DNA from: a virus | Taxonomy: Duplodnaviria; Caudoviricetes | Direction: 5' to 3' (one strand) | Length of the DNA: 64,000 bases | Virus record (IMG/VR): IMGVR_UViG_3300028591_000138 | Span: 1-64,000 of that record | In this document: piece after piece, positions 1 to 59,446 of the stretch | How positions within the stretch are numbered: the stretch's first letter is position 1 | How the letters are laid out: each line of letters starts with the position of its first letter | Notes under the pieces: generated by a model | Told to the model about the DNA's origin: nothing | Database searches by the model: none | The model's input: the letters and a program-made list of their open reading frames with translations, nothing else | Program-made: the position numbers and the translations under genes

Positions 1-126
1 TTCACGCTTGTGGAGAGTCCAACTGTGGACGACCGTCAGGCAGAGCCTGGCCTAAGAAGCAGTGACTCGTTGAAACAAGAAGCGGAAACTTGGGAATCAT
101 AGGATTTCATAAGTTTTCGTGTACGG
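1..126 (+). mobile_element. tnpB: 3' end of a TnpB-encoding element (IS607-like): tnpB C-terminal tail / omegaRNA region and putative right end ...AAGTTTTCGTGTACGG
   Basis: Frame 1 reads FTLVESPTVDDRQAEPGLRSSDSLKQEAETWES* (stop 100-102), resembling the C-terminal tails of phage-borne TnpBs that overlap the omegaRNA; the region ends in GG as IS607-type ends do. Truncated by the window edge. Confidence 0.6.
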
Positions 127-580
127 TTACTATTGTGAGTGGCGTGTCGAGAGCTGCCAGAACGGAAACGTGCTGTACCAGTCGGACAAGCTGGAGGATG
201 TTGTTAATTGGTGCATCAACAATTTTGCACAGTACCAGAAACATCTTGTCGGTCGCCACAGCCAACCTAAGAGATTTGCAAGGTATAATGAAATGGAGAG
301 GATACGGAAAGAGAAACAGGCTGAACTAGCCAAGCAGAGACAGGTGAGCGAGGACACGCTGCGGTCTAATCCGAGAAAACTGTTCTATCCAGACGGCAGG
401 GCTGGCGACATGGAACATGACTGGGATGCCCTGGACTGTGAAAGGGACACGTATAAGGCATATGACGTGCCGAATGAGATTGAGCGGATGGAAGCTGGGA
501 GGAAGATTGAGAGGGAGTGGACTCCCGAGGAACTGGAAGTCGCCAGCAGGTGGGTGGACGATTTCCTGGACGGACAATAG
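119..580 (+). CDS. Hypothetical protein, probably the 3' part of a gene interrupted by the upstream element
   Basis: Open frame; its only start (GTG) lies inside the putative IS end. Confidence 0.55.
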   Translation: MYGYYCEWRVESCQNGNVLYQSDKLEDVVNWCINNFAQYQKHLVGRHSQPKRFARYNEMERIRKEKQAELAKQRQVSEDTLRSNPRKLFYPDGRAGDMEHDWDALDCERDTYKAYDVPNEIERMEAGRKIEREWTPEELEVASRWVDDFLDGQ

Positions 581-627
581 TGAACTACACCGAAACTAAA
601 GATTTCGAGGTTTTCTTGAAAAAATAT
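580..627 (-). mobile_element. 48-bp miniature IS200/IS605 derivative (right and left ends fused through the shared hairpin; PATE-like)
   Basis: 580-607 is identical to 58241-58268 (GTGAACTACACCGAAACTAAAGATTTCG). The following GGTTTTCTTGAAA matches 59623-59635, and ATAAA (TTTAT target on the minus strand) follows at the same spacing. Confidence 0.85.
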
Positions 628-642
628 ATAAACTATGACACA

Positions 643-681
643 TAAAAAAAGCGAGCCTTTGATTATTTTGGTTCGCTTTTT
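643..681. terminator. Bidirectional intrinsic terminator between convergent genes
   Basis: A-run + GCGAGCC...GGTTCGC + T-run. Confidence 0.6.
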
Positions 682-693
682 TGTTTTTTTGTT

Positions 694-1203
694 CTAGTTT
701 TCTTTCTTGATGTAGTATCCGCATTGGTCGTTGTTGAAAAGGAGTTGGAGTCTCGGGTATCTTTCCAGAACATTCTCTGGGGTGAGGTCTGGCTGTTGGT
801 GAATCTCGTAAGTGTTGCCGTAGATAGCGTCCTGTTCGTACATATAGGGGAGAGCCACAACCAGATTGTCGCATCTGTCGTACGCATAGTCCAGAACTTT
901 CTGGGCGTCTTCCACAGCGAGATGCTCCAGTATATCGCCGAATATAATCAGATTATAATGGTTATATGTTAAATCCCTGATATCCGAGAAGAATACTATT
1001 CTGTATTTCTCCCTGAGGTTGTGGTCGGTGATGTTCGGCTCGAAGGCTTCCACCGCATCGATATTCCTGAATTTATCGTGGAGCAGGTTCCAATACGTAC
1101 CGCACCCAGCTCCCACGTCGAGGATGGTGATATCTTTGGCGAAGTTGTCGTAAATCCACTTTTTGATATCTTCCTTGAAATAGTGCATTGAAGTTCCGTG
1201 CAT
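694..1203 (-). CDS. Class I SAM-dependent methyltransferase
   Basis: ILDVGAGCG motif I, DAVEAF motif II, IIFGDILEHL motif. Confidence 0.85.
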   Translation of the reverse strand: MHGTSMHYFKEDIKKWIYDNFAKDITILDVGAGCGTYWNLLHDKFRNIDAVEAFEPNITDHNLREKYRIVFFSDIRDLTYNHYNLIIFGDILEHLAVEDAQKVLDYAYDRCDNLVVALPYMYEQDAIYGNTYEIHQQPDLTPENVLERYPRLQLLFNNDQCGYYIKKEN

Positions 1204-1220
1204 TTTTTTTGAGTTTATGA

Positions 1221-1228
1221 TATTTATA
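1221..1228 (+). promoter_or_regulatory. Putative late promoter TATTTATA (representative copy)
   Basis: The same octamer lies just upstream of plus-strand, mostly virion or tagged, genes at 5554, 7817, 10042, 28469, 35164, 36506, 38943, 42379, 42963, 45048, 47778, 49930, 54408 and 56041. Confidence 0.65.
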
Positions 1229-1260
1229 ATTATATAATATTATAAATATTTGATTTATAA

Positions 1261-1854
1261 ATGCAAAAAAAAATAAGACTGACTGAAAGTGATTTAAGGA
1301 ACCTGGTCGCCGAGGCTATAAGCGAGATGGATTATTCCACGCTGTATCATGCCAAGCGCAAGGGTAATGATACGATTCTTCCAAAACCGCGTAACACCTA
1401 TTCCGATTATGACAAATTATCGTTTTACGACGTTGAGGAGGCGTTAAACGTGGTGCGCGATGCGTTGCAGAGATATAGTGGAGGCGAACCAAGGGTGGAA
1501 GGCACCAGTGGACAGGCTAGAGCGCTTTTACCACTGCTTGACAAGATTGAGGCTTTCTTTGAGAGGAAAAAAACCCAGGGCGGAAACTTGGAACATTTCG
1601 GTAATGAATATGGCGACAGGGCTAGGGAGGAGTTTTTCGCTGCCATGGCTAAGAAATATCCAGGAAAGTTCAAGAGACTCGGTCGCGAAAGCTGGAACGA
1701 CACGGATTTCTACGCCAGCGACGATGACGAGTCGTTCAACACTTATATCGACAACGACTTGGAGGATGTGATGAACTCGTTGTCCCCGCAGGCTAGGAGT
1801 TACTTTGAACATGAAGGTCTTCCGACTGACTACGAGCCACAATATAGAAGATAA
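1261..1854 (+). CDS. LTES-tag protein (putative internal head/cargo protein)
   Basis: N-terminus MQKKIRLTESDLRNLVAEAISE. Confidence 0.75.
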   Translation: MQKKIRLTESDLRNLVAEAISEMDYSTLYHAKRKGNDTILPKPRNTYSDYDKLSFYDVEEALNVVRDALQRYSGGEPRVEGTSGQARALLPLLDKIEAFFERKKTQGGNLEHFGNEYGDRAREEFFAAMAKKYPGKFKRLGRESWNDTDFYASDDDESFNTYIDNDLEDVMNSLSPQARSYFEHEGLPTDYEPQYRR

Positions 1855-1878
1855 TTAAAATTAAATCCAAATATTACT

Positions 1879-2463
1879 ATGAAGAAAGTTATAACACTCA
1901 CCGAAAGTGAACTGAAAGGCATGATAAACGAAGCTATGAACGAGATACTCGGCTTCGGAAACGACCAGATGAACACCTACCGCCCCAGCGACAGATTTGC
2001 AAAGAAAGACGGCGGACTCTCGCAAGGTGCTAGCAGCGCCCCTAACAACTCCAGCATCTTCGACGACATGGCAAAGGGTAAGATGTGGGACAGGTTGAAA
2101 GGCGCGTGGGCTGGATTCAAACAGGGTCGCGACAGTATGGACAGAACCGCTGATGTTGCGCGTCCGTATCAGGATTCAGCTGACAGAGTTCACGCCAAGA
2201 TGAACGCCACCAAGGGAAGTGCCCAGAACATGGTAAAGACTCACGGACTTGCCAGAGACCTTGGCAACACCGTGAAAAACGATGTGAAGAGCTACGAGAT
2301 GAACAACAAGCAGGTCGACCAGGCTGTTGAAATGCTTGGCAATGATATTGAACGACGTCCAGAGGCTTTCGGTCTGCAGCGTCAAGCAGCTCCCGAGGCA
2401 GCACCAGAGTACAGTGCTGTAAGCGAGGCTGTAAACCGCGCAATCCGTAAATATTTAAAATAA
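1879..2463 (+). CDS. LTES-tag protein with C-terminal EAVNRAIRKYLK tag
   Basis: N-terminus MKKVITLTESELKGMINEAMNE; shared C-terminal motif. Confidence 0.75.
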   Translation: MKKVITLTESELKGMINEAMNEILGFGNDQMNTYRPSDRFAKKDGGLSQGASSAPNNSSIFDDMAKGKMWDRLKGAWAGFKQGRDSMDRTADVARPYQDSADRVHAKMNATKGSAQNMVKTHGLARDLGNTVKNDVKSYEMNNKQVDQAVEMLGNDIERRPEAFGLQRQAAPEAAPEYSAVSEAVNRAIRKYLK

Positions 2464-2488
2464 TTGAATAGAAACAATTTTTAGTAAT

Positions 2489-2887
2489 ATGAAACGGATA
2501 ATCAGACTCACGGAAAGCGAAATTAAAAATTTGATTAAAAAGTGTTTATTGGAATCCCAATATATGTCAGATGAGGATATTGCCAACCAATATTCCGATA
2601 TGGAAATAACCCATTTCACATTGAACCCATTAAAACACGATGAGGGATGGAAAGGTACATTTGAATTACAATTCCCAAACGCGGACGATATTGACTATGA
2701 CAGTAGTATGGTTAATGGTTTTATTGTGTATGATAAAGAAGGTGAGAAAATTGCCTGGGATAATTGGATGCCAGATGAGCAAACCCATAAATTAGAAGCA
2801 ATAATCAAGGATGAAATTAAAAAGAGACTGTCAAACAATATTTTAAATGAAGCCATTACCCGCGCAATTCGTAAATTTTTGAAATAA
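2489..2887 (+). CDS. LTES-tag protein with C-terminal EAITRAIRKFLK tag
   Basis: N-terminus MKRIIRLTESEIKNLIKKCLLE; shared C-terminal motif. Confidence 0.75.
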   Translation: MKRIIRLTESEIKNLIKKCLLESQYMSDEDIANQYSDMEITHFTLNPLKHDEGWKGTFELQFPNADDIDYDSSMVNGFIVYDKEGEKIAWDNWMPDEQTHKLEAIIKDEIKKRLSNNILNEAITRAIRKFLK

Positions 2888-2945
2888 GCCATGAACTATA
2901 ATCCAAGTCAAAATAACCAATAAATACATACCAATTCACAAACTA

Positions 2946-2976
2946 GGCGGAGTTGTTTAACGACTCCGCTTTTTTT
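2946..2976 (+). terminator. Intrinsic terminator
   Basis: GCGGAGTTG..CGACTCCGC + T-run. Confidence 0.7.
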
Positions 2977-3045
2977 GTTGTGAGAAAAACGAAAGACTTT
3001 GTATTTATTATTATATAAAATTAATAATCGCGATTTAATAACAAA

Positions 3046-5028
3046 ATGGATAATATGGACAACATCGAGACACAAGGCATCCAGGGGTTGCAGGGAGCCC
3101 AAGGTCTGCAGGGTTTGCAAGGCGTTCAGGGAACCCAGGGTACGCAGGGTGTCCAGGGGTTGCAAGGTGTCCGTGGTAAACAAGGCAAGATAGGCCCGAC
3201 TGGAGCCAAGGGTTCGGACGGTCTGCGCGGTGTACAGGGTGTACAGGGCGACAGAGGTCCTACAGGTATCCAGGGTACGCGTGGTTGTAACGGTCTGCAG
3301 GGTGCCGAGGGTATGCTTGGCGTGCAGGGTGTGCAAGGTAAGAGCGGTAGTGCTGGTCTGCAGGGTACTCGTGGTTGTAACGGTGCCCAGGGCGCCGACG
3401 GTATGACTGGTGTCCAGGGTATACAGGGTCGCAAGGGTCTGCAGGGTTTCAACGGCTTGATGGGTGTACAGGGTGAACCTGGCTCGCAAGGTTCACAGGG
3501 TCTCAGAGGTCCTGCTGGCGCCCGCGGCGAGATGGGTTATCAGGGTGACGACGGTGAGATTGGGATACAGGGACTTGTGGGTGAGGACGGAGCCATTTGG
3601 GAAGATGGTGTTAGGTTGAGCGGATATAACACCCACCTGTTCGAGTTTGATGGCACTGAAGGTAAATTTGTTTCCAAGAACACTTCGACAACTGATTTGC
3701 TGTATATACGAAACGGTGCCAGGATTCAAATCTGGCTTGACCAGGATGCTTATGACTCCATAGAGGAGACTGGAAATATCATAATAGACCGTCTGGAAAG
3801 CGGTACTCTGATTGAAACTTCATATCCTGTGTACTATGCAGGGGACACTCCGTTAATCGGAATGATTGACCCCGAGGCTGATATCGACTCCGTCATAGAG
3901 CTGGTGTACAGGGAAGAGGCGTGGTACTATAACGGCGGTCTGATTGCTTCGGCTTATGCTGGAAGCAATTCCATAGCCATAGACGGCAAGGAGATTTCTG
4001 TCCGTCGTTCTGAAAGTGACGGCAATTCCCTCCAGATACTTGACGACGGTTTATTCGTCAGCACAGCTGAGGGTGTCAAAATCATAAACGTTGAAATCGT
4101 TGACCTGACGGAAGAAAGTGGCACGACCTACTGGGCGGTCAATCCAGAGAACGTGCGTGTGAGGGTTCGTCCAATCAGCACCTGGGGGACTTATGAGGAT
4201 GAAGATGGCAACCAGTACACGGAAGACTATGTCAATGCAATTGAGGGTGGTCACAGATACATTGTAATCACCACGTCTGACAAACACATGCACTGGGTGG
4301 AGAACGACAATACGTCCGACACACATGTCGACAGTTTCAGTGTCGTTGACATTCCAGAGACTCAGGAGGAACCAGCTCATCAGGTTCTGAGAATAACCCT
4401 TAACGACAGTTCCACTTCCCCGACAACCTTTGACGTCAATGTGAACGACATCGCCGTTCATGTAGACAACGCCGAGATACACTACAACGAGGAAGAGGAC
4501 GAACTTGTTGTTACACAGGACGGTATTCTCACACAAGATGTTATTAACACGCTTCTTGGTTATATAGACGGGTACGACTGCGGTCTGTATGAAGACCCTC
4601 CGATTGAGATGAGTCTGGAGATGCCGAGCGGTATGGGATATGGTGATTATCGCTATGACCTGTTCAATGAAGACGACCAGCTGTTGAGGTACACCATTAC
4701 AATGGAAGACCACACTGGAAGTAGTAATAACATGGCTGACCGCCAATATATATTCACCGCTCCAGAGGGTCGTAGGATAAAAGTGACATTGGTCTCGCAA
4801 AACTTCAATCCTGATTATTCACAGACAAACCTACGTTATCAGGCTTTGTATCTGACCAACGAAGAAACCGCAAGTTCCGCAACCTATGACGAAATGTGGG
4901 ATTACAACACCCCAGTCGACCAGGTGTTTATAACTGACGGTAATACCTGTTCGGTAAGGTTTCATGTCGAGTACTTGACAACTTGGACAGACCTTTTCAC
5001 TATAATAGTTGAATGCAAACCGATTTAG
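3046..5028 (+). CDS. Collagen-like fibre/decoration protein with acidic C-terminal region (possibly CUB-like last domain)
   Basis: About 55 G-X-Y triplets (QG-rich) at the N-terminus; internal YDCGLY motif; FTAPEGRRIKVT...SVRFH resembles a CUB-type beta-sandwich. Confidence 0.8.
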   Translation: MDNMDNIETQGIQGLQGAQGLQGLQGVQGTQGTQGVQGLQGVRGKQGKIGPTGAKGSDGLRGVQGVQGDRGPTGIQGTRGCNGLQGAEGMLGVQGVQGKSGSAGLQGTRGCNGAQGADGMTGVQGIQGRKGLQGFNGLMGVQGEPGSQGSQGLRGPAGARGEMGYQGDDGEIGIQGLVGEDGAIWEDGVRLSGYNTHLFEFDGTEGKFVSKNTSTTDLLYIRNGARIQIWLDQDAYDSIEETGNIIIDRLESGTLIETSYPVYYAGDTPLIGMIDPEADIDSVIELVYREEAWYYNGGLIASAYAGSNSIAIDGKEISVRRSESDGNSLQILDDGLFVSTAEGVKIINVEIVDLTEESGTTYWAVNPENVRVRVRPISTWGTYEDEDGNQYTEDYVNAIEGGHRYIVITTSDKHMHWVENDNTSDTHVDSFSVVDIPETQEEPAHQVLRITLNDSSTSPTTFDVNVNDIAVHVDNAEIHYNEEEDELVVTQDGILTQDVINTLLGYIDGYDCGLYEDPPIEMSLEMPSGMGYGDYRYDLFNEDDQLLRYTITMEDHTGSSNNMADRQYIFTAPEGRRIKVTLVSQNFNPDYSQTNLRYQALYLTNEETASSATYDEMWDYNTPVDQVFITDGNTCSVRFHVEYLTTWTDLFTIIVECKPI

Positions 5029-5054
5029 TTTGAAAGTGGCATCTAATTAAAAAC

Positions 5055-5086
5055 AGCGCAGTCGTATTGCTCGGCTGCGTTTTTTG
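5055..5086 (+). terminator. Intrinsic terminator
   Basis: GCGCAGTCG..CGGCTGCGT + T-run. Confidence 0.65.
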
Positions 5087-5170
5087 TTTTACCAAAATCG
5101 CTATAGTTTTTGCTTTTTGACAATATTATATATTATATTGTTTAACATAATAATAGAAATAATTTCAAAT

Positions 5171-5416
5171 ATGAAAAACTCTACTTTGGTTTTATACGGG
5201 CTCCTGATTGGTGCGTGCGCCCTATTGTGGGGTCTCATTGGGTGGAAGGTGTCCCTTTTGTGTTTCGGTCTGTTCCACCTCTGTATGTGGGTGAATGTTA
5301 CAATGACAACCCTCTCCAACGCCCTTGTCGGCAGAACTGTCTCGGAAAACGACGCCTGGTACCGAATCCTCTGCATAATCATAGGGTGTGTCTGTGTGGC
5401 AATTGTAATAATTTAG
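5171..5416 (+). CDS. Small membrane protein (about 3 TM helices)
   Basis: Hydrophobic stretches; ATG at 5171 preferred over the upstream TTG. Confidence 0.65.
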   Translation: MKNSTLVLYGLLIGACALLWGLIGWKVSLLCFGLFHLCMWVNVTMTTLSNALVGRTVSENDAWYRILCIIIGCVCVAIVII

Positions 5417-5496
5417 AAGTTAATTTAATACAATGAGAAGCTTAAAAAAGTTGAAAGGGGATGGTTGGGATAACAACAGAAGATAATAAACCTATT

Positions 5497-7318
5497 CAAA
5501 TGTAGTCAAAAATGTTCAAAAATAACTCGTATAAATATATTATAGTTTAAGACTATTTATATAATGAAACGAAAGTGAGGAGTCGTTTCAAAATAACAAT
5601 AAAGATATACAGAGGTTTTATCCTTGATGGCACTCCTCACATTACTGCCGCAAGTTTAATGCCTCTTTTTTGTTATAATATGGTCATAGACAGCAAATAC
5701 ACAAAAACATTCAAGTCAAACGACTTAACCCGTCAGAAGTATGACGAGCTGCATTCTTTTGCTGTTATGCTGCGTGACCACAAGAACCTTGTTTCCGAAT
5801 ATGTCAACTCTAATCTTGAACACTACCTTGAGTATTCCAAACTTGACTTCTTGAAGGAAATGCGTGCAAGGTACAAGGATGTCATTCCGAGTTCGTTTGA
5901 TGTTCAGTTATACACCCAAGTGTTCAACTGCTATCAGAACAAGTTTGAAGCAATCCGCAAGCATCTTGACTTTGAAGTTGTAAGATTTGTTGGTTTTGAG
6001 TTCTACAAGCGTGACACCAAAAAGAACAAGAAAGGCGACTTGAAAAAGGTTGTGACAGAAAAGTCAAAAACACCTCTAACAATATGTCTAACATACCTTG
6101 CAAGGTACGGAAACGAGAACACGCTTGACTATATCGCAAAGCAGTTGGAGACCTGCGATGAAAAGAAACGTGAGTTTTACAACAACATACTGCGTTGTTG
6201 TGAGAAATTCGGTTTTGAACGTCTGTTTGAACTCGCTTTGCGTAAACGTAACAGAATCATAAAACGGTATTCTGAATATCCGATTGAGTTCAAGTCCTTG
6301 TCATTCGGGGGAAGGTGCAGAAAAACAAGAATCATTGACTACAACAAGAAGTTCGGTTCAGTCATCAACTCCTTTGTTAGTCTGTCTGGAATCGGAAGAA
6401 AGTCGTTTGATATTCCCGTTAAGTTTAACAAGGATTGGCACGGCAGTATGAGAGACTACAGCAAAACAAATCCCGACTATGAGTATGTGCTTACGTTCAA
6501 CGAAAAATACCATCAAGTGAACATCAACTTGTGCAAGGACGGAGAGAGGTATATACCAGAAGCGGGTGACAATGTTGTTGGTATTGACGTTAATTGCAAG
6601 CACAACTTGTTCAGTCTTTCAAACGAGACAACTTATGATTACAATCGACAACTTGTAAACGACTTCTGCAAACTCTCGTTGAAAGTGGACGAACTAAAAA
6701 AGGACAAGAACTACACCATCGGCAAGCGCAAGCAGCAGAAACTTGACACCTTGAAGATGAAGATGCTGAAATCCGAGCAACAACTCATTTCAAGTATGTG
6801 CAAGGAACTGATGATGGATGGTGTGAACCACATCGTTATGGAAGACCTTGACAACGGATTTGGAAGGTGCTACGTCAAAGACAAGGATAATGAGGATATT
6901 AACTACAACAGAAAGGTCAAGTTTCTTGGATTGTCATCCTTGAAGCAGGAGGCTGAACACATTGCAAGAAAATATGGTATTGCATTGTCAACTGTGCAGG
7001 CGAGTTACACAAGCAAAATGTGTCCGATTTGCGGTTGCATTACCGATGAGAACAGACCCAACCAAGAAACCTTTGAATGTGTTGAGTGCGGGCATAAGGA
7101 CAACGCCGACTTCAACGCATCCAAGAACATAATGAACAGAGTGACCGTAACCGTGTTACGTGATTCGCTCTTAAAACGACTTGGCAACGGCGCATACGAA
7201 CCGAGAAAACTGAAAAGGGAGAAGGTGAAGGATGTGCTGCTGTCATTCCGAAGAGACTTGCAGAAAGCAAGTGGTGAATATAGTGAAAATAACAACTTGA
7301 ATACTTTTGACTATGTTT
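5497..7318 (+). mobile_element. Transposase-less TnpB element with imperfect terminal inverted repeats, inserted near the 5' end of a phage gene
   Basis: Left AAATGTAGTCAAAAATGTTCAA versus reverse-complemented right AAACATAGTCAAAAGTATTCAA (18/22). Removing 5497-7318 joins MVGITTEDNKPI (ATG 5461) in frame to SSSETSTVEVFAKE... Confidence 0.65.
5565..5676 (+). ncRNA. Candidate structured 5' leader RNA: two hairpins with complementary loops (kissing loop/pseudoknot)
   Basis: Stem TGAAACGA/TCGTTTCA with loop GTGAGGAG (5575-5582); long stem AGAGGT..CTTG.TGGCA/TGCCG CAAG..GCCTCT with loop CTCCTCAC (5633-5640); starts just after TATTTATA at 5554. Confidence 0.55.
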
Positions 7319-7320
7319 AG
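5680..7320 (+). CDS. tnpB: RNA-guided endonuclease TnpB family, long variant (546 aa)
   Basis: RuvC-I VVGIDVN, RuvC-II IVMEDL, Zn finger CPICG...CVECG, RuvC-III DNADFNASKNI all intact; ATG 5680 preferred. Confidence 0.9.
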   Translation: MVIDSKYTKTFKSNDLTRQKYDELHSFAVMLRDHKNLVSEYVNSNLEHYLEYSKLDFLKEMRARYKDVIPSSFDVQLYTQVFNCYQNKFEAIRKHLDFEVVRFVGFEFYKRDTKKNKKGDLKKVVTEKSKTPLTICLTYLARYGNENTLDYIAKQLETCDEKKREFYNNILRCCEKFGFERLFELALRKRNRIIKRYSEYPIEFKSLSFGGRCRKTRIIDYNKKFGSVINSFVSLSGIGRKSFDIPVKFNKDWHGSMRDYSKTNPDYEYVLTFNEKYHQVNINLCKDGERYIPEAGDNVVGIDVNCKHNLFSLSNETTYDYNRQLVNDFCKLSLKVDELKKDKNYTIGKRKQQKLDTLKMKMLKSEQQLISSMCKELMMDGVNHIVMEDLDNGFGRCYVKDKDNEDINYNRKVKFLGLSSLKQEAEHIARKYGIALSTVQASYTSKMCPICGCITDENRPNQETFECVECGHKDNADFNASKNIMNRVTVTVLRDSLLKRLGNGAYEPRKLKREKVKDVLLSFRRDLQKASGEYSENNNLNTFDYV

Positions 7321-7654
7321 TTCTTCGGAAACCTCAACCGTTGAAGTGTTTGCCAAGGAATATCCTTTCCTTGAGAAATGTATGAAATATTTGAACTGGG
7401 GGGGGGATAAGGTAAGCGTGTTTGTCAAACACAAAGAAGGCGAAACAACATATATGCTGTTGTTGTACACCGAGAAACGCGAATACCAAATTATCGTGAC
7501 CTCGACGTATATGGGCTGCCAAACGGATTGTCGATATCACCGTCCGTTGGAGGATTGGACTCGCGGTCGAGACCTGGCTGATGGCAAATGTAACGAGGAG
7601 ACGTTTAGACGCATACTATGCGATATCATCAGCACGGAACTGGTTGCACTGTAA
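7313..7654 (+). CDS. Hypothetical protein (3' part of the interrupted gene, restarted by an ATG in the element end)
   Basis: ATG TTT in the right inverted repeat is in frame with the downstream ORF. Confidence 0.65.
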   Translation: MFSSSETSTVEVFAKEYPFLEKCMKYLNWGGDKVSVFVKHKEGETTYMLLLYTEKREYQIIVTSTYMGCQTDCRYHRPLEDWTRGRDLADGKCNEETFRRILCDIISTELVAL

Positions 7655-7685
7655 CTTATTAAAAAAAAACTTACATGATATTTAT

Positions 7686-7745
7686 AATAATATTTCGAGA
7701 AAACTCCGAAATCTTTAGTTTCGGAGATGAATTGAACTAACCTTG
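7686..7745 (+). mobile_element. Solo left end of the IS605-type element, with the last tnpA codons
   Basis: Reverse complement matches 59582-59635 (CAAGGTTAG..TCAATTCATC(T/C)CCGAAACT.AAGATTTCGG.GTTTTCT.GAAA); preceded by TTTAT at 7681-7685. Confidence 0.75.
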
Positions 7746-7880
7746 CAATATCAATATAATTGAAAAAAAATCGTCTTCGGAAATATAATTCTTGGGACGG
7801 TTTTCTTTTAAGGCAATATTTATATAATATAAACAAAAAACAAACAAATTAATAATAACAAAATTAATCTAGATTAAGTT

Positions 7881-9518
7881 ATGAGTAAATTAAGAAAAGT
7901 CCAGTTTTTCCGTAACAGCAGCTTGACTGCCTATGCTAACCACGCTGCTGCTGTAAATGCTGCAGAATTGGCTTGGAAGGCTCAAGGCTTTGCCAATATG
8001 GAAGACGGTGAACTGTTATTGTATCGTTATACCATATCAGGTGAAACGGGTACACCAGCACATACCATTGTAGGTGTTGTAAGAAACGATGGTACCAATA
8101 AGTATTTCGAGGTTCTCGCCAACTACGATATGCTGACCAGCCAGTTCGATAGCTTGGATGTTCCTGGCTACGAGCAAGCCTATATAACTATTGGCAACGG
8201 CACTTCTACATTAACAGTCCAAGGTATCCAGGAAACCGACGGTTTGATTAGTGCTGCCGCCACTCAAGGTCTCACTATCAATATTGACGGTGAATACAAA
8301 GATATTGACAACAAGATTGCCACACAGAGCACTGTAACCAACGCTGTTGAAGCTCTGAATGGTTCTGCAACCATTGCAAGTGAATCTAACGGTGTTGTTA
8401 CTTTGAAGGTTGGTGTTCAGGAAGTGCAAGGTATCATCAGCAATGATGCAAACACTGATATTACCCTTGCTAAGGTTGCCAAGACTGGTGCTGCCGCTGA
8501 CGTAAGCATCGCTGACAGCAATAACTTGTTCACTGCAACTAACGTTGAAGATGCACTGGCTGAGGTTCAGGGTAATGTTCAGACGGTTCAAGGTAATCTT
8601 GAGACTGTTGCCGCAAGCATCAAGGATGGTGCTATTACATGGAATGACGGAACCATTGATGTTAACGTTTTCTCAGCTAACACTAACACTAACTTGACAC
8701 TTCGTCAACATGACTTTGTATATGACAGCAATGAACTTGGTGTAAATGTTCAGACCGCAACTTCCGCAACCAACAAGATTGCTACGATGGCTGATATCGC
8801 CAGCTTGACAGGTGCAATGCACTATAAAGGTGGCGTAACAGAATATCCCACTCCAACTGCAGACACCAAAGCTGGTGACACTTATATTGTAACACAGCGT
8901 TTTGAACACCCTGCACAAAGCGGTAATTGGTATGAAGTTGGTGATATGCTTGTTGCCACGGCGGATGGTACTTCTGCAACCTATACCGTTGTTCAATCGA
9001 ATTTAACCCTCGGTATGGGTACAGGCGAGGTTGCCGCTAACCAGACTGCATTGACGGTTAATCAAATTGTTGTTGCTGGCTCTACTGGTGTTCAGACCAC
9101 TGGCTACACGTTCGACGCTGAATCTACGGCTGGTAATACCACAATCGGTTCAGATTCTACCAACGCACAAGTACCTACTTCGAAGAACGTTTACGACGCT
9201 ATCCAAGATTTGGCTGTTAACAGTGTTTCGGAGACTGTTGGCGTAGGTACCGTTACCGACGGTGCGTCAATCACCGACACTCTAACCGTTGACGGAACTG
9301 CAAGCACACAGACCGTAAATATTGTTGCGACACAAGGTGTTAGTGTGACGCCTGACGCAGGTACGCAGACAATAACATTGGCAGCTAAAGTTGCTGACTA
9401 TGCTCATGTGGGGAATACGACTACAGTAACCACCGAGACTGACGCATATAACCTCTTGAAGGTTGATGCTAGCGGTAACTTGTCGGTATCAGACACCTGG
9501 GACTGCGGAACTTATTGA
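7881..9518 (+). CDS. Fibre/decoration-like structural protein
   Basis: T/A/G/N-rich; N-terminus similar to 11108, LAKVAKTG segment similar to 49958, AMHYKGGV repeat-type motif, C-terminal WDCGTY. Confidence 0.7.
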   Translation: MSKLRKVQFFRNSSLTAYANHAAAVNAAELAWKAQGFANMEDGELLLYRYTISGETGTPAHTIVGVVRNDGTNKYFEVLANYDMLTSQFDSLDVPGYEQAYITIGNGTSTLTVQGIQETDGLISAAATQGLTINIDGEYKDIDNKIATQSTVTNAVEALNGSATIASESNGVVTLKVGVQEVQGIISNDANTDITLAKVAKTGAAADVSIADSNNLFTATNVEDALAEVQGNVQTVQGNLETVAASIKDGAITWNDGTIDVNVFSANTNTNLTLRQHDFVYDSNELGVNVQTATSATNKIATMADIASLTGAMHYKGGVTEYPTPTADTKAGDTYIVTQRFEHPAQSGNWYEVGDMLVATADGTSATYTVVQSNLTLGMGTGEVAANQTALTVNQIVVAGSTGVQTTGYTFDAESTAGNTTIGSDSTNAQVPTSKNVYDAIQDLAVNSVSETVGVGTVTDGASITDTLTVDGTASTQTVNIVATQGVSVTPDAGTQTITLAAKVADYAHVGNTTTVTTETDAYNLLKVDASGNLSVSDTWDCGTY

Positions 9519-9614
9519 TTTTCAGCACTTTGAATAAAAGAAATGGGGCTAATTAAGTTTAGTCCCATTTTTATTTTTTGTTGATATTTATTATTATAAA
9601 AATTAATGGGAACT

Positions 9615-9944
9615 ATGAAAAAAACTATAAAATTGACTGAAAGTGACCTCCGCAGAATGGTGATGGAGACAGTGAAAAACACGTTAAACGAAGCTGAGAA
9701 CCATGGGTGGGTCGTTGAGGACGAAGATGCCCAGAAAGCGTACAACTTCGCCTGTCAACAGTTGGGCAAGGAAACTGTTGACGACGCAATCATCAGATGT
9801 CTCGGCAATGAAAGGCTGGCGGCAATCCTGGCATATGTTTTCAGAATGTACGACTTCCGCGAATGGGAAAACTTTTCTGGATATGACGATGACGATGACA
9901 GTTCTGGTGAGGACGTGGATGTGTACAACCTGTACACCCGATAG
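9615..9944 (+). CDS. LTES-tag protein
   Basis: MKKTIKLTESDLRRMVMETVKNTLNE (alternative start 9606). Confidence 0.75.
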   Translation: MKKTIKLTESDLRRMVMETVKNTLNEAENHGWVVEDEDAQKAYNFACQQLGKETVDDAIIRCLGNERLAAILAYVFRMYDFREWENFSGYDDDDDSSGEDVDVYNLYTR

Positions 9945-10109
9945 GCGTCCGACTCATAACCAATGTCAAAAAACTTAGGCGGAACCATTTAATTTGGCTC
10001 CGCTTTCTCTTTTTTTTGGTTTATCCTAATATTTATTATTATATTTATAATAATAGGTTTTTTAACCATTTTTGTAATTTGAAATAACAGTCTAAAGAGG
10101 AACATTTTT

Positions 10110-11060
10110 ATGCCATTGAGACACCTATATCACGTGCGCAGCAATGTTGCGACAGCTCAGGGGTTGGCGAAACTCCCCGATGTTCAGGATATTGGATACG
10201 GCGAAATTGCAATAAACTACGCACAGGGACTTGAAACGATTTCATTGAAAAACTCGAACAATGCAATTGTCCCGTTCACACCGAACACCAATTCATATGT
10301 GGCGAATGTAAATGCTGCGATAACGGAAAACTCACTGGAGAGTATTGTAACTCCAGTCAATGTTTCCAGGTATCAGGATTTCAATATTTCATACTTGGTT
10401 GGCAACACTGACGTTGCTTTCGACCTGTCGGACTTTATCGAATATATTGTTACCACGTTCTATACATCGCCGAGCCTCCATGTTGTACTTCATGTTGCCA
10501 AGGACGACGATGACTACGGCAACAACACCAACTTCATTGTGAACGCGGATTCAATGGCTCTGTTGATGGGTGACGCCAACACCCCGCTGAGCACGGCGTC
10601 CAGGATTATAGGTTTCACCAACTACGGGACATACTTCGTTGCTGGCGACTCTCCCGCAATGAACGGGATTGAAATCGACTGGGATTCGGTCACCAAGGCT
10701 ATAAGTGTCAGGTTCATGTACTCAACGGTTGTTTACGGGCTGGGCGGCACTCCGAACTATGTGTGCTCTGTGATATCGGTTCCGAACGTGACAGTGATGG
10801 ATAGAAGTGTAAATGTGCGCCAGATAATGTGCACAGACCAGATTAGCGTTAACATTAAACTCTATTCTGGGGGTGACCCGTTTGGTCAGACAATGACCTA
10901 CGAATTGCGCAACGCAAACAACCAGTCCATTGCAAACGGTACAATACAAGGTGGCAAGGGGACTATAGACATGGCTCAGTACCAGCCTGGAGAGCATACC
11001 CTATGGATTACCGACGGTAAGGGTGCTCAGAAAGTGATTCGCATAGTTAGAAAAAGTTAA
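10110..11060 (+). CDS. Putative fibre/virion protein
   Basis: N-terminal KLP..I.YGEIAINY...ETISLKN resembles phage fibre attachment domains; Ig-like C-terminus. Confidence 0.6.
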   Translation: MPLRHLYHVRSNVATAQGLAKLPDVQDIGYGEIAINYAQGLETISLKNSNNAIVPFTPNTNSYVANVNAAITENSLESIVTPVNVSRYQDFNISYLVGNTDVAFDLSDFIEYIVTTFYTSPSLHVVLHVAKDDDDYGNNTNFIVNADSMALLMGDANTPLSTASRIIGFTNYGTYFVAGDSPAMNGIEIDWDSVTKAISVRFMYSTVVYGLGGTPNYVCSVISVPNVTVMDRSVNVRQIMCTDQISVNIKLYSGGDPFGQTMTYELRNANNQSIANGTIQGGKGTIDMAQYQPGEHTLWITDGKGAQKVIRIVRKS

Positions 11061-11107
11061 TTAATGAGAAAATTGGATAATAAAATAGAATAATTTTACA
11101 CTATAAT

Positions 11108-13663
11108 ATGCCTTCGAACAATTATTTATACGGACACAAGCACATCCTCCTACGCAACGGCGAGGTCTTCGCGGACAGGGCTGCAGCAGTGCAGGAGATA
11201 AACAGCCTCCACAGCCAGGGGGTTTTCTCGGATGGCGAAATTGTTACCGCCAGATATTTCCACATGGACGGCAATAACACGAAAGTGATTCGTGCGTTGT
11301 TGGCTGAATGTGTAACAGTTGACTATGTGGATTCTACTACAAGCATTGCTGTACATGAGAACAGGATGGAGTTCTTCGACAACACTGATGAAATATTCGA
11401 TAACATTGAGGTTATACAGGGTGTTCAGGGAACCCAAGGTAGCATAGGAGCACAGGGTGCTCAGGGTACGCAGGGTATCAAGGGTGACACTGGAGCACAG
11501 GGTGCTCAGGGTACGCAGGGTATCAAGGGCAACACTGGAGCACAGGGCGCTCAAGGTACGCAAGGTATCAAGGGCGGCACTGGAGCACAGGGTGCTCAGG
11601 GTACGCAAGGTATCAAAGGCGACACTGGAGCACAGGGTAGCGTAGGCGCGCAAGGCGCCAAGGGTACACAAGGTACTGCTGGTACCAATGGAGCCCAAGG
11701 TAGCGTAGGCGCGCAAGGCGCCAAGGGTACGCAAGGTACTGCTGGTACGAACGGTGCACAGGGTAGCGTAGGCGCGCAAGGCGCTACGGGTGCCCAAGGC
11801 GCGAAAGGAGCCCAGGGTAACGTAGGTGCTCAGGGTGCTACGGGTGCCCAAGGTACTGCTGGTACCAATGGAGCACAGGGTAGCGTAGGCGCGCAAGGCG
11901 CCAAGGGTACGCAAGGTACTGCTGGTACGAACGGTGCACAGGGTAGCGTAGGCGCGCAAGGCGCGAAAGGTGCCCAAGGTACTGCTGGTACCAATGGAGC
12001 ACAGGGTAGCGTAGGCGCGCAAGGCGCGAAAGGTGCCCAAGGTACTGCTGGTACCAATGGAGCACAGGGTAGCGTAGGCGCACAAGGCGCGAAAGGTGCC
12101 CAAGGTACTGCTGGTACCAATGGCGCACAGGGTAGCGTAGGCGCACAAGGCGCGAAAGGTGCCCAAGGTACTGCTGGTACCAATGGAGCACAGGGTAGCG
12201 TAGGCGCACAAGGCGCGAAAGGTACACAAGGTACCGCTGGTACGAACGGCGCACAGGGTAGTGTAGGCGCACAAGGCGCCAAGGGTACGCAAGGTACTGC
12301 TGGTACCAATGGAGCACAGGGTAGCGTAGGCGCTCAAGGCGCCAAAGGTGACACTGGCGCACAGGGTGCTCAGGGTACACAAGGTATCAAGGGCGACACT
12401 GGAGCCCAGGGTAGCGTAGGCGCACAAGGCGCCAAAGGTACGCAAGGTACTGCTGGTACCAATGGAGCACAGGGCGCTCAAGGTACGCAGGGTATTATGG
12501 GTGCCAATAATCTTGACCTCGTGTTTCAATTGGGTGTACAAAACAATGAGGTTGTAATTACCAGCGCTAGTCAAACTGTTTCACAGGTGTTGACAGCCAT
12601 TTCTAATGGGCGAAAAGTTACAACAACTATTATAGTCGAAGACAGTTATTATAGTAACTGTGATAGCGTATGGTGTACAGTCAGTGGCGATGAATATTTT
12701 GAAAGTTTTGTTCCTACTTGGGGTGAAATTTTTGAAATCTATGGTGATTTAGTTAATGACTGGGAATTTACCAACAACGAATACAAAACCAAACAAACAT
12801 ATATACCCAGCCCGACGGCTTCTGGAACAGCAACTCAGTTTATAACAACTATTGAGCAAAATGAAAACGGAGAAATTTATGCTACAAAAAGTAACGTTAA
12901 TGTTGTAGACAGAAAAGTTGAACAAACAGGGACAAAACCTCTAGATATAGCCCTTCCAGTAATATTTCAATTTCCAGACCCTGGGACTAAGACTGATGTT
13001 GTTGCAATCGATATAGAGTATGGTTCAAGCCGATTTAGTTATAACCCGAATGCGGGTGTTTTAAGTGCACCTTATTTCAAGGGTGACGGTCGTTTTTTAG
13101 CCAATATTCCTACGGGTTCACATACGCACGGAAACATTCAAAACAGCGGAACGCTACAAACCAACGATGTGACAATAGCCACAGGTGACAAGTTGGTTAT
13201 AACAGATTCCTCCGACAGCGATAAGATTGCAAGGTCATCATTATCATTTAATACAGTGCACCAGGACAAGTTTCTTAGACAAGACGGTACATGGCAAACA
13301 ATAAGAATACCGCAAACAACGTTTAAGTTTGACACACTAACAAACAATCAAACGGCTGTAACTTTTGCCGACACTCCTTGTTACTATGATGTAGCAGTAA
13401 CTGGAGCAACACAAACATTTAATATAAGCATTCCAGCAGCAAACGAATATACCAACTATTTATTGGTAAAAAACACAGGCAGCGCTGAATGTACAATAGC
13501 TTTGGCTAAAGCGAGTGGTATGGGGTGGACTAAATTTGTATTACCGTCAAACACAATAACTGTTGCAAGTGGGAAGGCTATTGAAATATCGTTTGTTTCA
13601 GATTCAACAGGTGCTGTTCTATATATCACAAACTCAGCAGAATTAACAATTCAAACATTATAA
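11108..13663 (+). CDS. Collagen-like tail fibre protein
   Basis: About 120 uninterrupted G-X-Y triplets; HTHGNI and KFLRQDGTW motifs typical of phage fibres. Confidence 0.85.
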   Translation: MPSNNYLYGHKHILLRNGEVFADRAAAVQEINSLHSQGVFSDGEIVTARYFHMDGNNTKVIRALLAECVTVDYVDSTTSIAVHENRMEFFDNTDEIFDNIEVIQGVQGTQGSIGAQGAQGTQGIKGDTGAQGAQGTQGIKGNTGAQGAQGTQGIKGGTGAQGAQGTQGIKGDTGAQGSVGAQGAKGTQGTAGTNGAQGSVGAQGAKGTQGTAGTNGAQGSVGAQGATGAQGAKGAQGNVGAQGATGAQGTAGTNGAQGSVGAQGAKGTQGTAGTNGAQGSVGAQGAKGAQGTAGTNGAQGSVGAQGAKGAQGTAGTNGAQGSVGAQGAKGAQGTAGTNGAQGSVGAQGAKGAQGTAGTNGAQGSVGAQGAKGTQGTAGTNGAQGSVGAQGAKGTQGTAGTNGAQGSVGAQGAKGDTGAQGAQGTQGIKGDTGAQGSVGAQGAKGTQGTAGTNGAQGAQGTQGIMGANNLDLVFQLGVQNNEVVITSASQTVSQVLTAISNGRKVTTTIIVEDSYYSNCDSVWCTVSGDEYFESFVPTWGEIFEIYGDLVNDWEFTNNEYKTKQTYIPSPTASGTATQFITTIEQNENGEIYATKSNVNVVDRKVEQTGTKPLDIALPVIFQFPDPGTKTDVVAIDIEYGSSRFSYNPNAGVLSAPYFKGDGRFLANIPTGSHTHGNIQNSGTLQTNDVTIATGDKLVITDSSDSDKIARSSLSFNTVHQDKFLRQDGTWQTIRIPQTTFKFDTLTNNQTAVTFADTPCYYDVAVTGATQTFNISIPAANEYTNYLLVKNTGSAECTIALAKASGMGWTKFVLPSNTITVASGKAIEISFVSDSTGAVLYITNSAELTIQTL
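11417..12505 (+). repeat. Collagen tandem repeats, 63-bp unit (GTAGTNGAQGSVGAQGAKG[AT]Q, about 11 copies) plus 45-bp GAQGAQGTQGIKGDT units
   Basis: Near-identical nucleotide repeats directly visible. Confidence 0.95.
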
Positions 13664-13665
13664 TA

Positions 13666-14178
13666 ATGACTTATTATGTAGTAAATAACAGAAAAATTGT
13701 AGGGTTTGCTTTGCCAATCAATTTGGCGATGAATGTTGGTTTTGTCCCTCTTACCGAGGAGCAAACTGCGTTCTATGAGGAGCACCCAACAGCAAGTGTC
13801 GGAGAGGTGTTGAAGGGTGAATTGATTCAAACGTACACACCGCCAGAAGAATCTATATTAAGCCATGCTGAAAGTGTTGTATCCGACCTAAAAGCAGCAT
13901 GTTATGGGAGTGTTACTATTTCATCGCTAGAGTATTCGGTTGCTGTTGCTTGTGTAAATGGCACGTCGTTGCTTTTTACTGGTGACAGATACTATTCGGT
14001 TATTGAAGCCAAAAATATCATCAAACAGTTTATGAATGAGAGTAACAGAGCACTTACCATATACAACACATACAAAACACAGATAGAGTCGGCAAAAACA
14101 AAGGAAGAAATTAATAATTTATATTCACAAGCAATGGAGGCGTTAAATGGTGAGGACAATTCCAATCAAACGAAATAG
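13666..14178 (+). CDS. Putative tail fibre assembly chaperone
   Basis: Directly follows the fibre gene; C-terminal IESAKTKEEIN resembles DUF4376/Tfa-type tails. Confidence 0.55.
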   Translation: MTYYVVNNRKIVGFALPINLAMNVGFVPLTEEQTAFYEEHPTASVGEVLKGELIQTYTPPEESILSHAESVVSDLKAACYGSVTISSLEYSVAVACVNGTSLLFTGDRYYSVIEAKNIIKQFMNESNRALTIYNTYKTQIESAKTKEEINNLYSQAMEALNGEDNSNQTK

Positions 14179-58280: not shown

Positions 58281-59446
58281 TCACTGACAACCGCATTCCG
58301 AAAAATGTCTTACGTCGTCTCCATCAGTGTAATCGACAGTCCCTGCCGATATGTTTCCCAATCCTTCCTTGAGGATGTTCTTCGCGGCGTTGATGTCCCT
58401 GTCGTGGTCTGCGCCGCAATTCGGGCATCGCCACTCCCTCACGGACAAATCCTTGACACCGCTATATACGTAACCGCATTCGCTACACGTCTGACTTGAG
58501 GGATAGAATCTCCCTATCCTTACGACCCGCTTGTCGTTCATGTCCGCCTTGTATTGGAGATACGAAACGAACGTCCCCCACGCGCGCAGTCCTGTATATG
58601 CTTGGCGAGAGTATGGTTGCGTATCATCCCCTTGACGTTCAAGTCCTCCAAGCATATTATGTCATACTTTCGGATTAAGTCGAGCGATACTTTATGTAAA
58701 TTATCATTACGGCTGTTCGCAATCTTTTCTTGAATCTTGGCAACCTTGAGTCTTTGTCTTTCGTACCCGTTGCTGCCATGTTGTTTCCTTGAAAGATGCC
58801 TTTGCGCAATCGCCAACTTCCGTTGGTATTTCCTTGTGTATCTGTTGTTTTTGTATAGTTTACCATCTGATGTAATGACAAAATCCTTGATACCCAAGTC
58901 AATGCCTGCATTCTTGCCGCTCTTCGCCATTGGCTCGTACATTTGTTCGGTCAGCAGACTGACATAATACTTGCCTGTGGTCGTCAGCGATATTGTCGCC
59001 GAATTGATTTTGCCGAGCAATTCCCTGTGCTGCCTCACCTTGATGCCTTCCTTGAATTTCGGGAAGTACACTTTTCCGTCTTTCAGTTCCACGAACTGCG
59101 GAACGCTGAAACTGTTCCTCGCTTTCTTTGACTTGAAATTCGGGAACTTCGCGTTGCCCCTGAAAAAGTTCACATAAGCGGTTTCCAAATGACGCAAGGC
59201 GTGCTGGAGCGTCTGACTGTTTATTTCCTTCAGCCAAAGATGCTCGCCGTCCTTTTTGAGTTCGGTCAGTTTCCTTGCCTGTTCGTAATAATTTTCCGAC
59301 TTGCGGGTTTCGTCATATTGGCGCTTGCGCTCGGAGAGGAAATGGTTGTACACAAAACGCACCGAGCCGAAATGCTTGGCAAGTAAAACTCTCTGCTCGG
59401 TGTTCGGTTCAAGTCTGAATTTGTATGTTTTGTATATGACCTTCAT
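58281..59446 (-). pseudogene. tnpB: tnpB split by a frameshift near 58582
   Basis: HTH YKFRLEPN, GIDLG and CLEDL in one frame; WGTFVSYLQYK, PSSQTCSECG and DRDINAAKNI in another; an extra CG in TGCGCGCGTGG explains the shift. Confidence 0.85.

Follow-up and report, generated by a model that had tools for sequence, protein, structure and literature searches.

Locus and overall reading

The window analysed here is a stretch of 64,000 nucleotides from a virus of the Caudoviricetes (positions 1 to 64,000 of the IMG/VR record IMGVR_UViG_3300028591_000138). At 5470-7328, an insertion carrying a long tnpB gene splits a small phage gene into two pieces. On the plus strand, the insertion consists of a left end with iterated short repeats and a promoter-like stretch, a structured leader RNA, tnpB, and a co-varying omegaRNA scaffold which overlaps the end of tnpB and stops at the right junction (Table 1). 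It is interpreted, with a probability of roughly 0.85, as a non-autonomous IS607-family element of giant rumen and gut phages, which inserted at a TGGG motif in codon 13 of a phage gene of 120 amino acids (aa). According to this reading, tnpA was lost while tnpB and both ends were kept, the leader RNA stands in the place of tnpA, and the element would spread by omegaRNA-guided homing. An earlier annotation of the same DNA (the original prediction) had described a possibly new type of TnpB element, with 22-bp terminal inverted repeats at 5497-7318, no 3' omegaRNA, a different guide arrangement, which could for instance use the leader, and a right repeat that would restart the interrupted gene.

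Table 1. Features of the insertion and of the gene it splits (window coordinates, plus strand).
Feature	Position	Strand	Remarks
Whole element	5470..7328	+	1,859 bp; very probably a non-autonomous IS607-family insertion sequence
Target and transposon-adjacent motif (TAM)	5466..5469	+	TGGG with GG core dinucleotide; matching GG at 7327-7328
5' gene piece	5433..5469	+	12 codons, MRSLKKLKGDGW, plus first base of codon 13
3' gene piece	7329..7654	+	108 codons; homologues P0001-P0005
Left end	5470..5565	+	three TCAAA(A/T) repeats with 11-bp spacing (~5494-5522), including the left arm of the originally proposed repeat
Promoter-like stretch in left end	5528-5540 and 5558-5565		CGTATAAATATAT and TATATAAT; putative promoter
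Structured leader RNA	5566..5671	+	~105 nt; at the position of the small ORF and tnpA in autonomous copies
Leader hairpin 1	5566-5572/5583-5589	+	7 bp
Leader kissing (loop-loop) helix	5575-5582 with 5633-5640	+	8 bp
Leader long composite hairpin	closed by 5611-5615/5662-5666	+	U-run after its base; tnpB ATG 8 nt further on
tnpB	5680..7320	+	546 aa; RuvC D303/E388/D477; zinc ribbon C448/C451/C467/C470
omegaRNA scaffold	7138..7328	+	overlaps the last ~60 tnpB codons; ends at the right junction
Right repeat arm	7297..7318	+	two inverted TCAAAA-type units; also part of the omegaRNA 3' stem
ATG in right end	7313..7315	+	in frame with the 3' gene piece; overlaps the tnpB stop (ATGTTTAG)
Predicted guide segment	7329..7348	+	flank adjoining the 3' end of the scaffold; in the empty allele, the target beside TGGG

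Element boundaries and target site

Related copies were collected by a protein-guided scan of IMG/VR contigs (17 loci on contigs of 85-353 kb) and from rumen and human-gut metagenomes (78 further loci). The other insertions of a related element, for which the original prediction had suggested a search, thus amount to about 95 copies (loci numbered with the prefix L). They occupy at least 67 distinct insertion sites as judged by their right flanks, with at most two copies per phage genome; two copies occur in some of the genomes among the IMG/VR contigs.

In the alignment of the flanks, all copies are conserved through ...TTCTTCGG and diverge beyond it, and within the subgroup of the window's copy the conservation extends leftward to GGGATAACAACAG. 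The block conserved between independent insertions corresponds to 5466/5470 to 7328/7329. When 7-kb stretches were compared with other phage genomes by BLAST, the same segment (window 5465/5467-7329) matched and the flanks did not. The element of the original prediction was consequently too short, as conserved sequence reaches 27 nt further left and 10 nt further right than the boundaries 5497-7318.

The junctions read TGGG/ATAAC... on the left and ...TTCTTCGG/A on the right (the slash marks the edge of the element), with GG at both. TGGG was found at 12 of the 16 readable left junctions, and the remainder have CGGG, AGGG or GGGG. The family therefore inserts at GG with a preference for TGGG and without a long target duplication, as IS607 elements do. 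For CboIStron, an IS607 IStron of C. botulinum, the experimental target is 5'-TGGG-3' with a strict requirement for GG, and TGGG is also the TAM of its TnpB (doi 10.1101/2023.11.20.567912). The junctions described here match this target and TAM, which supports an IS607-type insertion.

Two copies have conspicuous surroundings. The copy at L003:1493-5540 lies within an array of tRNA genes; the distance from its ends to tRNAs is 75 nt on the upstream and 34 nt on the downstream side. About 70 nt to the right of another copy (L002:4651-4723) are present five times in the phage genome G001, hence this copy adjoins a dispersed phage repeat.

Interrupted gene and empty allele

In the occupied allele, the 5' gene piece continues into the left end and terminates at a TAA (5484-5486). 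When 5433-5469 is joined to 7329-7654, an open reading frame (ORF) of 120 aa results, which begins at ATG 5433 and starts MRSLKKLKGDGW-ETSTVEVF. When only the downstream piece was used as query, a database search retrieved the uninterrupted homologue P0001, which also has 120 aa and starts MRSLNKLKGDGWETSTVEVF. Joined ORF and homologue are identical at 110 of 120 positions over the full length and without gaps, and they agree exactly at the junction. This is independent confirmation that the gene is interrupted and that the boundaries are correct. The original prediction had recognised the interruption of the downstream gene correctly; its restored N-terminus, MVGITTEDNKPI-SSSETS, belongs to a 14-codon ORF located mostly within the left end and is not matched by P0001. 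No match in Pfam or PHROG was obtained for the 3' gene piece.

The empty site is predicted to read ...GGTTGGG, followed directly by AAACCTCAACC. The empty allele was recovered as a protein (P0001) and not at the DNA level in the contigs scanned: neither the target gene nor the exact 21-mer of the predicted empty site was found in viral contigs, and P0001 had no counterpart in metagenome contigs. A megablast of 4500-8500 against GenBank phages gave no match. For the flanks of the window's copy and of the copy in L002, no DNA-level conservation and no empty site were detected in five or six related phage genomes.

Relatives with transposase and the end repeats

As originally stated, no transposase is encoded in the element, nor was one found elsewhere in the 100-kb record. 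A full tnpA is present directly upstream of tnpB in relatives that share the left end and the TnpB (L009 and at least ten more, among them L018, L074, L078, L079, L083, L086, L126 and L143). Its product of 205 aa scores 189.7 bits against NF033518, 'IS607 family transposase' (NCBIfam cut-off 110), and contains a MerR-type helix-turn-helix (HTH; MerR/HTH_17) and a Resolvase domain. Through its autonomous copies, the family hence has a serine-recombinase TnpA with an N-terminal MerR-like HTH. Intermediate states exist as well: L008 and L014 retain the HTH part of tnpA alone, and L010 retains a small ORF of 77 aa alone.

This small ORF (~75 aa; L009:2148-2378, with homologues in ~15 loci) is situated between the left end and tnpA in autonomous copies, has no match in Pfam or PHROG, and persists by itself in some copies lacking tnpA, such as L010. 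In L143, an additional small ORF is found between tnpA and tnpB.

The 22-nt inverted repeat of the original prediction (5498-5519/7297-7318) exists and is 82% complementary, but it does not mark the ends. It is one of 42 comparable pairs in 2.5 kb and, taken alone, no stronger than chance repeats, so that it cannot by itself define the ends. Its arms are subterminal, set back from the element ends by 28 nt on the left and 10 nt on the right. The core of the right arm, TTTTGACTA, is near-invariant in 60 right ends, and the promoter-like stretch of the left end is conserved in independent as well as autonomous copies (in the latter, ahead of the small ORF and tnpA). IS607 recombinases bind iterated subterminal sites. 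The TCAAAA-type subterminal repeats are probable TnpA binding sites, and the 22-nt inverted repeats would represent such iterated recombinase-binding motifs rather than termini. The absence of IS200/IS605 hairpin ends had been noted correctly, since the termini show iterated TCAAAA-type repeats and no imperfect palindromes.

Two other assignments were considered and discarded. Membership in IS200/IS605 does not agree with the serine recombinase of the relatives (in place of a Y1 (HUH) TnpA), the TGGG target and the lack of terminal hairpins. An element of the DDE type bounded by terminal inverted repeats (e.g. an IS630-linked TnpB element) is incompatible with the subterminal position of the repeats and with the serine recombinase of the autonomous copies.

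omegaRNA scaffold and predicted guide

It had been argued that tnpB runs to the edge of the element and leaves no room for an omegaRNA. The tnpB stop does lie close to the right end, 8 nt from position 7328, but a co-varying scaffold overlaps the coding sequence and abuts the right junction. In the consensus fold of the last ~190 nt, calculated from 60 diverse right ends, 18 of 49 pairs show compensatory changes, with 25-27 double changes per pair in hairpin A. The terminal stem is formed by the final TTCTTCGG and a segment lying ~90 nt before it. For the 194 nt of the window's copy, the same fold is obtained (z = -4.2). Synonymous-codon identity rises from ~0.55 in the middle of tnpB to 0.65-0.77 in codons 461-546, which is expected where a coding region doubles as structured RNA.

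A scaffold that overlaps the C-terminal codons of tnpB and stops at the junction corresponds to the usual TnpB guide layout, hence a standard 3' omegaRNA replaces the different guide arrangement proposed originally. The guide of TnpB is taken from the flank 3' of the scaffold by an established mechanism (PMC8612924); by analogy, the flank from 7329 would serve as guide here.

Synonymous-site conservation is also high in the first 40 codons of tnpB (window 5680-5800; 0.72-0.75 compared to ~0.55), which hints at another constraint at the nucleotide level beside the leader.

TnpB protein and its relation to Cas-lambda

The TnpB of 546 aa with an intact RuvC triad was confirmed. In an alignment of 57 family members, the RuvC residues and the CxxC...CxxC cysteines of the zinc ribbon are invariant or nearly so, as required of an IS607 tnpB with intact RuvC and zinc ribbon. 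In Pfam, the protein matches Cas12f1-like_TNB (PF07282, 60 bits) and, weakly, OrfB_IS605. An exhaustive HMMER search returned 144 cluster representatives (50% identity) at E < 1e-30, most of which have 510-600 aa and align from end to end. A single match was obtained in 185,579 species genomes, on a 360-kb contig in a metagenome-assembled genome of 'Bacilli'; this contig is probably a mis-binned phage.

An AlphaFold model of the whole TnpB reached a mean predicted local distance difference test score (pLDDT) of 92.5. Structure searches with this model ranked Cas-lambda and Cas-lambda2 first, with Z 20.8 and 16-17% identity over 462-473 aligned residues; the runners-up Cas12f (Z 16) and ISDra2 TnpB (Z 14) are lower by about 5 Z units. 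The N-terminal 295 residues modelled alone (pLDDT 95.4) again had Cas-lambda as the first hit (Z 14.4). Of these, 252 are collinear with residues 9-327 of Cas-lambda, compared to 164-174 for TnpB and Cas12f. The ~90 additional residues in the 'extended lobe' noticed originally accordingly have a counterpart in Cas-lambda. With Cas-lambda heading both lists by 3-5 Z units, the model has a fold of the Cas-lambda type in both the WED/REC lobe and RuvC. By sequence profile against PDB, the RuvC half is closer to Cas12f and TnpB (102 bits) than to Cas-lambda2 (40 bits). As the profile does not rank Cas-lambda first, the link is one of structure. A shared fold is no proof of descent, and the kinship with Cas-lambda is regarded as a structural lead and not as demonstrated descent.

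A CRISPR effector of the Cas-lambda type with an adjacent array was also considered as an identity for this protein and rejected, for no CRISPR array was found in window 1-14000. Likewise, the 100-kb record contains no second Cas-lambda-like gene.

The original idea of a distinct phage TnpB/Cas12f-like lineage holds insofar as the lineage is distinct, long and phage-borne (144 representatives with a Cas-lambda-like N-lobe); it does not hold for new ends or a new guide arrangement. Phage effectors are described to have 'evolved from TnpB independently' (PMC12141684). We tentatively propose, as a possibility rather than as the expected outcome, that the lineage of long (~510-600 aa) TnpBs is a transposon-borne sister or source of Cas-lambda, in which the enlarged REC lobe predates the array, and that the tnpA-less derivatives evolved the kissing-loop leader as a new RNA-level control module common to two types of TnpB.

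Leader RNA upstream of tnpB

Across 12 distinct leader sequences, pairing holds in 94.8% of the alignment cells. In the kissing helix it reaches 100%, and six of the eight pairs there show compensatory changes. The covariation score of the leader was reached by none of 500 shuffles and exceeds all slid controls. The promoter-like stretch preceding the leader is present in autonomous copies, too. A permissive search of Rfam with the window region and seven related loci yielded noise and tRNAs, and no intron, ribozyme or TnpB-RNA family. A scan for σ70 promoters and terminators found nothing convincing for the leader, and a 'late promoter' motif is not enriched in the window. Because its 3' end meets the start of tnpB rather than a variable flank, the leader has no guide-like variable segment.

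The leader would be transcribed from the left-end promoter, end in the U-run 8 nt before the tnpB start, and most likely act in cis. Our best guess, weakly held, is that it attenuates or insulates tnpB expression in cis.

The same promoter and leader occur ahead of a different, canonical TnpB of 431 aa (L027:1489-2996; L036, minus strand, 1100-1338; L051, minus strand, 560-785). This protein has HTH_OrfB_IS605, OrfB_IS605 and TNB domains, and its element has a related left end (GGGTACATAACAG...) and a different right end. The leader is thus a module common to two TnpB families in these phages.

In-frame ATG of the right end

According to the original prediction, the right repeat provides a start codon for the interrupted gene. 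In the window's copy, ATG 7313 is indeed in frame and a product shorter by 12 residues is possible, but this is not a conserved property of the copies. In 18 of 67 copies, ATA, GTG or ACG stands in place of the ATG, and such changes are equally frequent among in-frame copies (6 of 22). Of 66 distinct insertions, 22 are open (≥ 40 codons) in the frame of the ATG and 10 in the other two sense frames. As null expectation, 353 TGGGA sites of the same phages were evaluated in the same manner; 51% of these have the ATG frame, since the target is most often read as TGG-GAx (Trp-Asp/Glu). Relative to this value, 22 of 32 is a weak enrichment (p = 0.03). A run of six out of six sense insertions in the same phase is likewise mostly explained by the TGG-GAx codon composition. 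Insertions in non-coding DNA or gene ends account for 34 of 66, compared to 31% of the motif sites (p = 5e-4). A restart as a designed feature was rejected on account of the weak enrichment and the unconserved ATG; in the window's copy, the gene may be restarted by chance of phase.

Proposed mechanism

The last ~190 nt of the element would be transcribed as omegaRNA scaffold, with the flank from 7329 as guide. TnpB and omegaRNA could then cut genomes of co-infecting phages which carry the empty allele, i.e. TGGG followed by the sequence from 7329 onwards, and repair off the occupied allele would copy the element in. Such RNA-guided homing into empty alleles at co-infection best explains the persistence and spread of the element, by analogy with IS605 and IS607 elements in bacteria, for which it has been demonstrated. 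New GG sites would be reached by transposition with TnpA acting in trans. Since TnpA is absent from the record and from three complete genomes whose copies are tnpB-only, new transpositions would need a helper, for which the autonomous relatives are candidates.

Evaluation of alternative explanations

Several observations weigh against parts of the preferred reading. The empty allele is known as a protein only, and pattern and protein scans of contigs gave no DNA. TnpB scores 88 bits for NCBIfam guided_TnpB, under the cut-off of 100. No TnpA occurs in the record, which is 29% complete, and the three complete genomes contain no close TnpA, so any current transposition is hypothetical. One leader (L075:3066-3200) keeps hairpin 1 and lacks the second hairpin and the U-run, with tnpB starting 21 nt after hairpin 1. 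The missing TnpA of the complete genomes is what would be expected of a domesticated, immobile TnpB serving the phage in competitor exclusion or regulation, with the leader RNA as regulator or partner. The use of one leader module ahead of two TnpB types would suit such a role, and the Cas-lambda-like architecture hints at a route to host-like functions. Against this, the copies occupy many sites, including sites within genes and a tRNA array, with several copies per genome and no fixed locus common across phages. Their left and right ends are intact beside GG, and the guide segment is whatever flanks the insertion, as in mobile elements. Domestication is therefore considered improbable.

An IStron-like element, in which a left-end ribozyme splices the element from the host mRNA and restores the gene at the RNA level, as in the group I intron IStrons of IS607 and IS605, would agree with the TGGG target, which is shared by IS607 IStrons, whose splice sites coincide with the transposon ends (doi 10.1101/2023.11.20.567912). 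Related giant gut phages are rich in group I introns of ~200 nt (PMC12880540), and the 210-nt non-coding left part of the element does hold a co-varying pseudoknotted RNA. However, no group I intron or other ribozyme was matched, either in the window (E ≤ 10) or in seven related loci (E ≤ 1), and the order of helices (hairpin, long hairpin, loop-loop pairing) appears unlike a P3-P7 pseudoknot and has no apparent equivalents of P4-P6 or P8. Moreover, autonomous copies have only ~100 nt ahead of their first ORF, L075 lacks half of the leader, and insertions into genes in sense orientation are not enriched, with non-coding and gene-end sites above expectation instead. Splicing is thus a very unlikely explanation. 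For the original prediction, hardly any credence is left. The inverted repeat, a structured RNA upstream of tnpB and the in-frame ATG with its slight enrichment speak for it. Conserved sequence beyond both of its ends, a restored N-terminus missing from P0001, the scaffold at the right junction, a leader without guide-like segment, and an ATG altered as often in in-frame copies as in others speak against it. The relation to IS607 elements with a serine-recombinase TnpA, the standard 3' omegaRNA and the different boundaries are largely the findings which it had itself named as counter-evidence, and a different end architecture and guide arrangement is therefore not supported. The non-autonomous IS607-family element with omegaRNA-guided homing remains the preferred reading.

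Genomic neighbourhood and significance

Further TnpB sequences are present in the window. A second TnpB of the canonical short type at 58317-59425 (minus strand) is split by an apparent frameshift into 58586-59425 and 58317-58571, and 1-129 (plus strand) encode the C-terminal tail of another TnpB, with one TAG inside. The intergenic region at 7677-7724 contains a 48-nt hairpin which is terminator-like on the minus strand. This hairpin is 98% identical in two other phage genomes with otherwise unalignable flanks, in each of which it is ~4.3 kb from a TnpB element. Proteins with collagen-like Gly-X-Y repeats, probably fibre proteins, flank the region at 3046-5028 and 11400-12500.

As a transposon, the element is ordinary and exemplifies how IS607-type elements, with their predicted RNA-guided homing, actively colonise giant phage genomes and can split phage genes. 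What goes beyond an ordinary IS607 element is the Cas-lambda-like long TnpB and the leader RNA, and not the new ends, guide position and built-in restart claimed originally, which failed. An origin of Cas-lambda from TnpB has been inferred and not yet traced; phylogeny and biochemistry can test it on a transposon-borne nuclease which shares with Cas-lambda the N-lobe architecture and the kind of phage. The long TnpB is also a compact nuclease with a predicted G-rich TAM. The leader is a strongly co-varying, unclassified RNA tied to two TnpB types, and its role can be tested directly.

Comparison with known systems

The IS607 family, represented by IS607 of H. pylori, CboIStron and ISFba1-type elements (PMC11061315), resembles the element family most closely. 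Common features are the serine-recombinase TnpA with MerR-type HTH (in the relatives), insertion at GG in TGGG without long duplication, the lack of terminal hairpins, a tnpB predicted to be RuvC-active followed by an omegaRNA scaffold abutting the right end, and the existence of transposase-less derivatives. In contrast to these elements, the window's copy has neither tnpA nor a group I intron, a kissing-loop leader RNA occupies the position of tnpA, and the element resides in giant phages instead of bacterial chromosomes. TnpB is also longer, with 546 aa compared to the mean of 390 aa given in PMC11061315 for RAGATH-18-linked IS607 TnpBs.

TnpBs of IS200/IS605 (ISDra2 and relatives) are similar in being RNA-guided, in an omegaRNA overlapping the 3' end of tnpB, in a predicted homing role and in the core fold (Z 14). 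The element differs from them by the absence of a Y1 transposase, of subterminal DNA hairpins and of a TTGAT-type target, with a serine recombinase in the relatives and a GG target instead. In function, it would resemble the free-standing and intron-borne homing endonucleases of large phages (T4 seg/mob genes), which are also selfish nuclease genes in or between phage genes and expected to spread to the empty allele at co-infection; here, the target would be read by a flank-derived RNA and not by the protein. The nearest fold to the TnpB model is that of Cas-lambda (Cas12l; Cas12n in PMC12141684; PDB 8dc2, 9izm-9izr), a CRISPR effector of huge phages. Both come from large phages found in animal guts (the sample that yielded Cas-lambda2 was from Bos taurus), whereas TnpB is ~200 aa shorter and would receive its guide from the transposon end.

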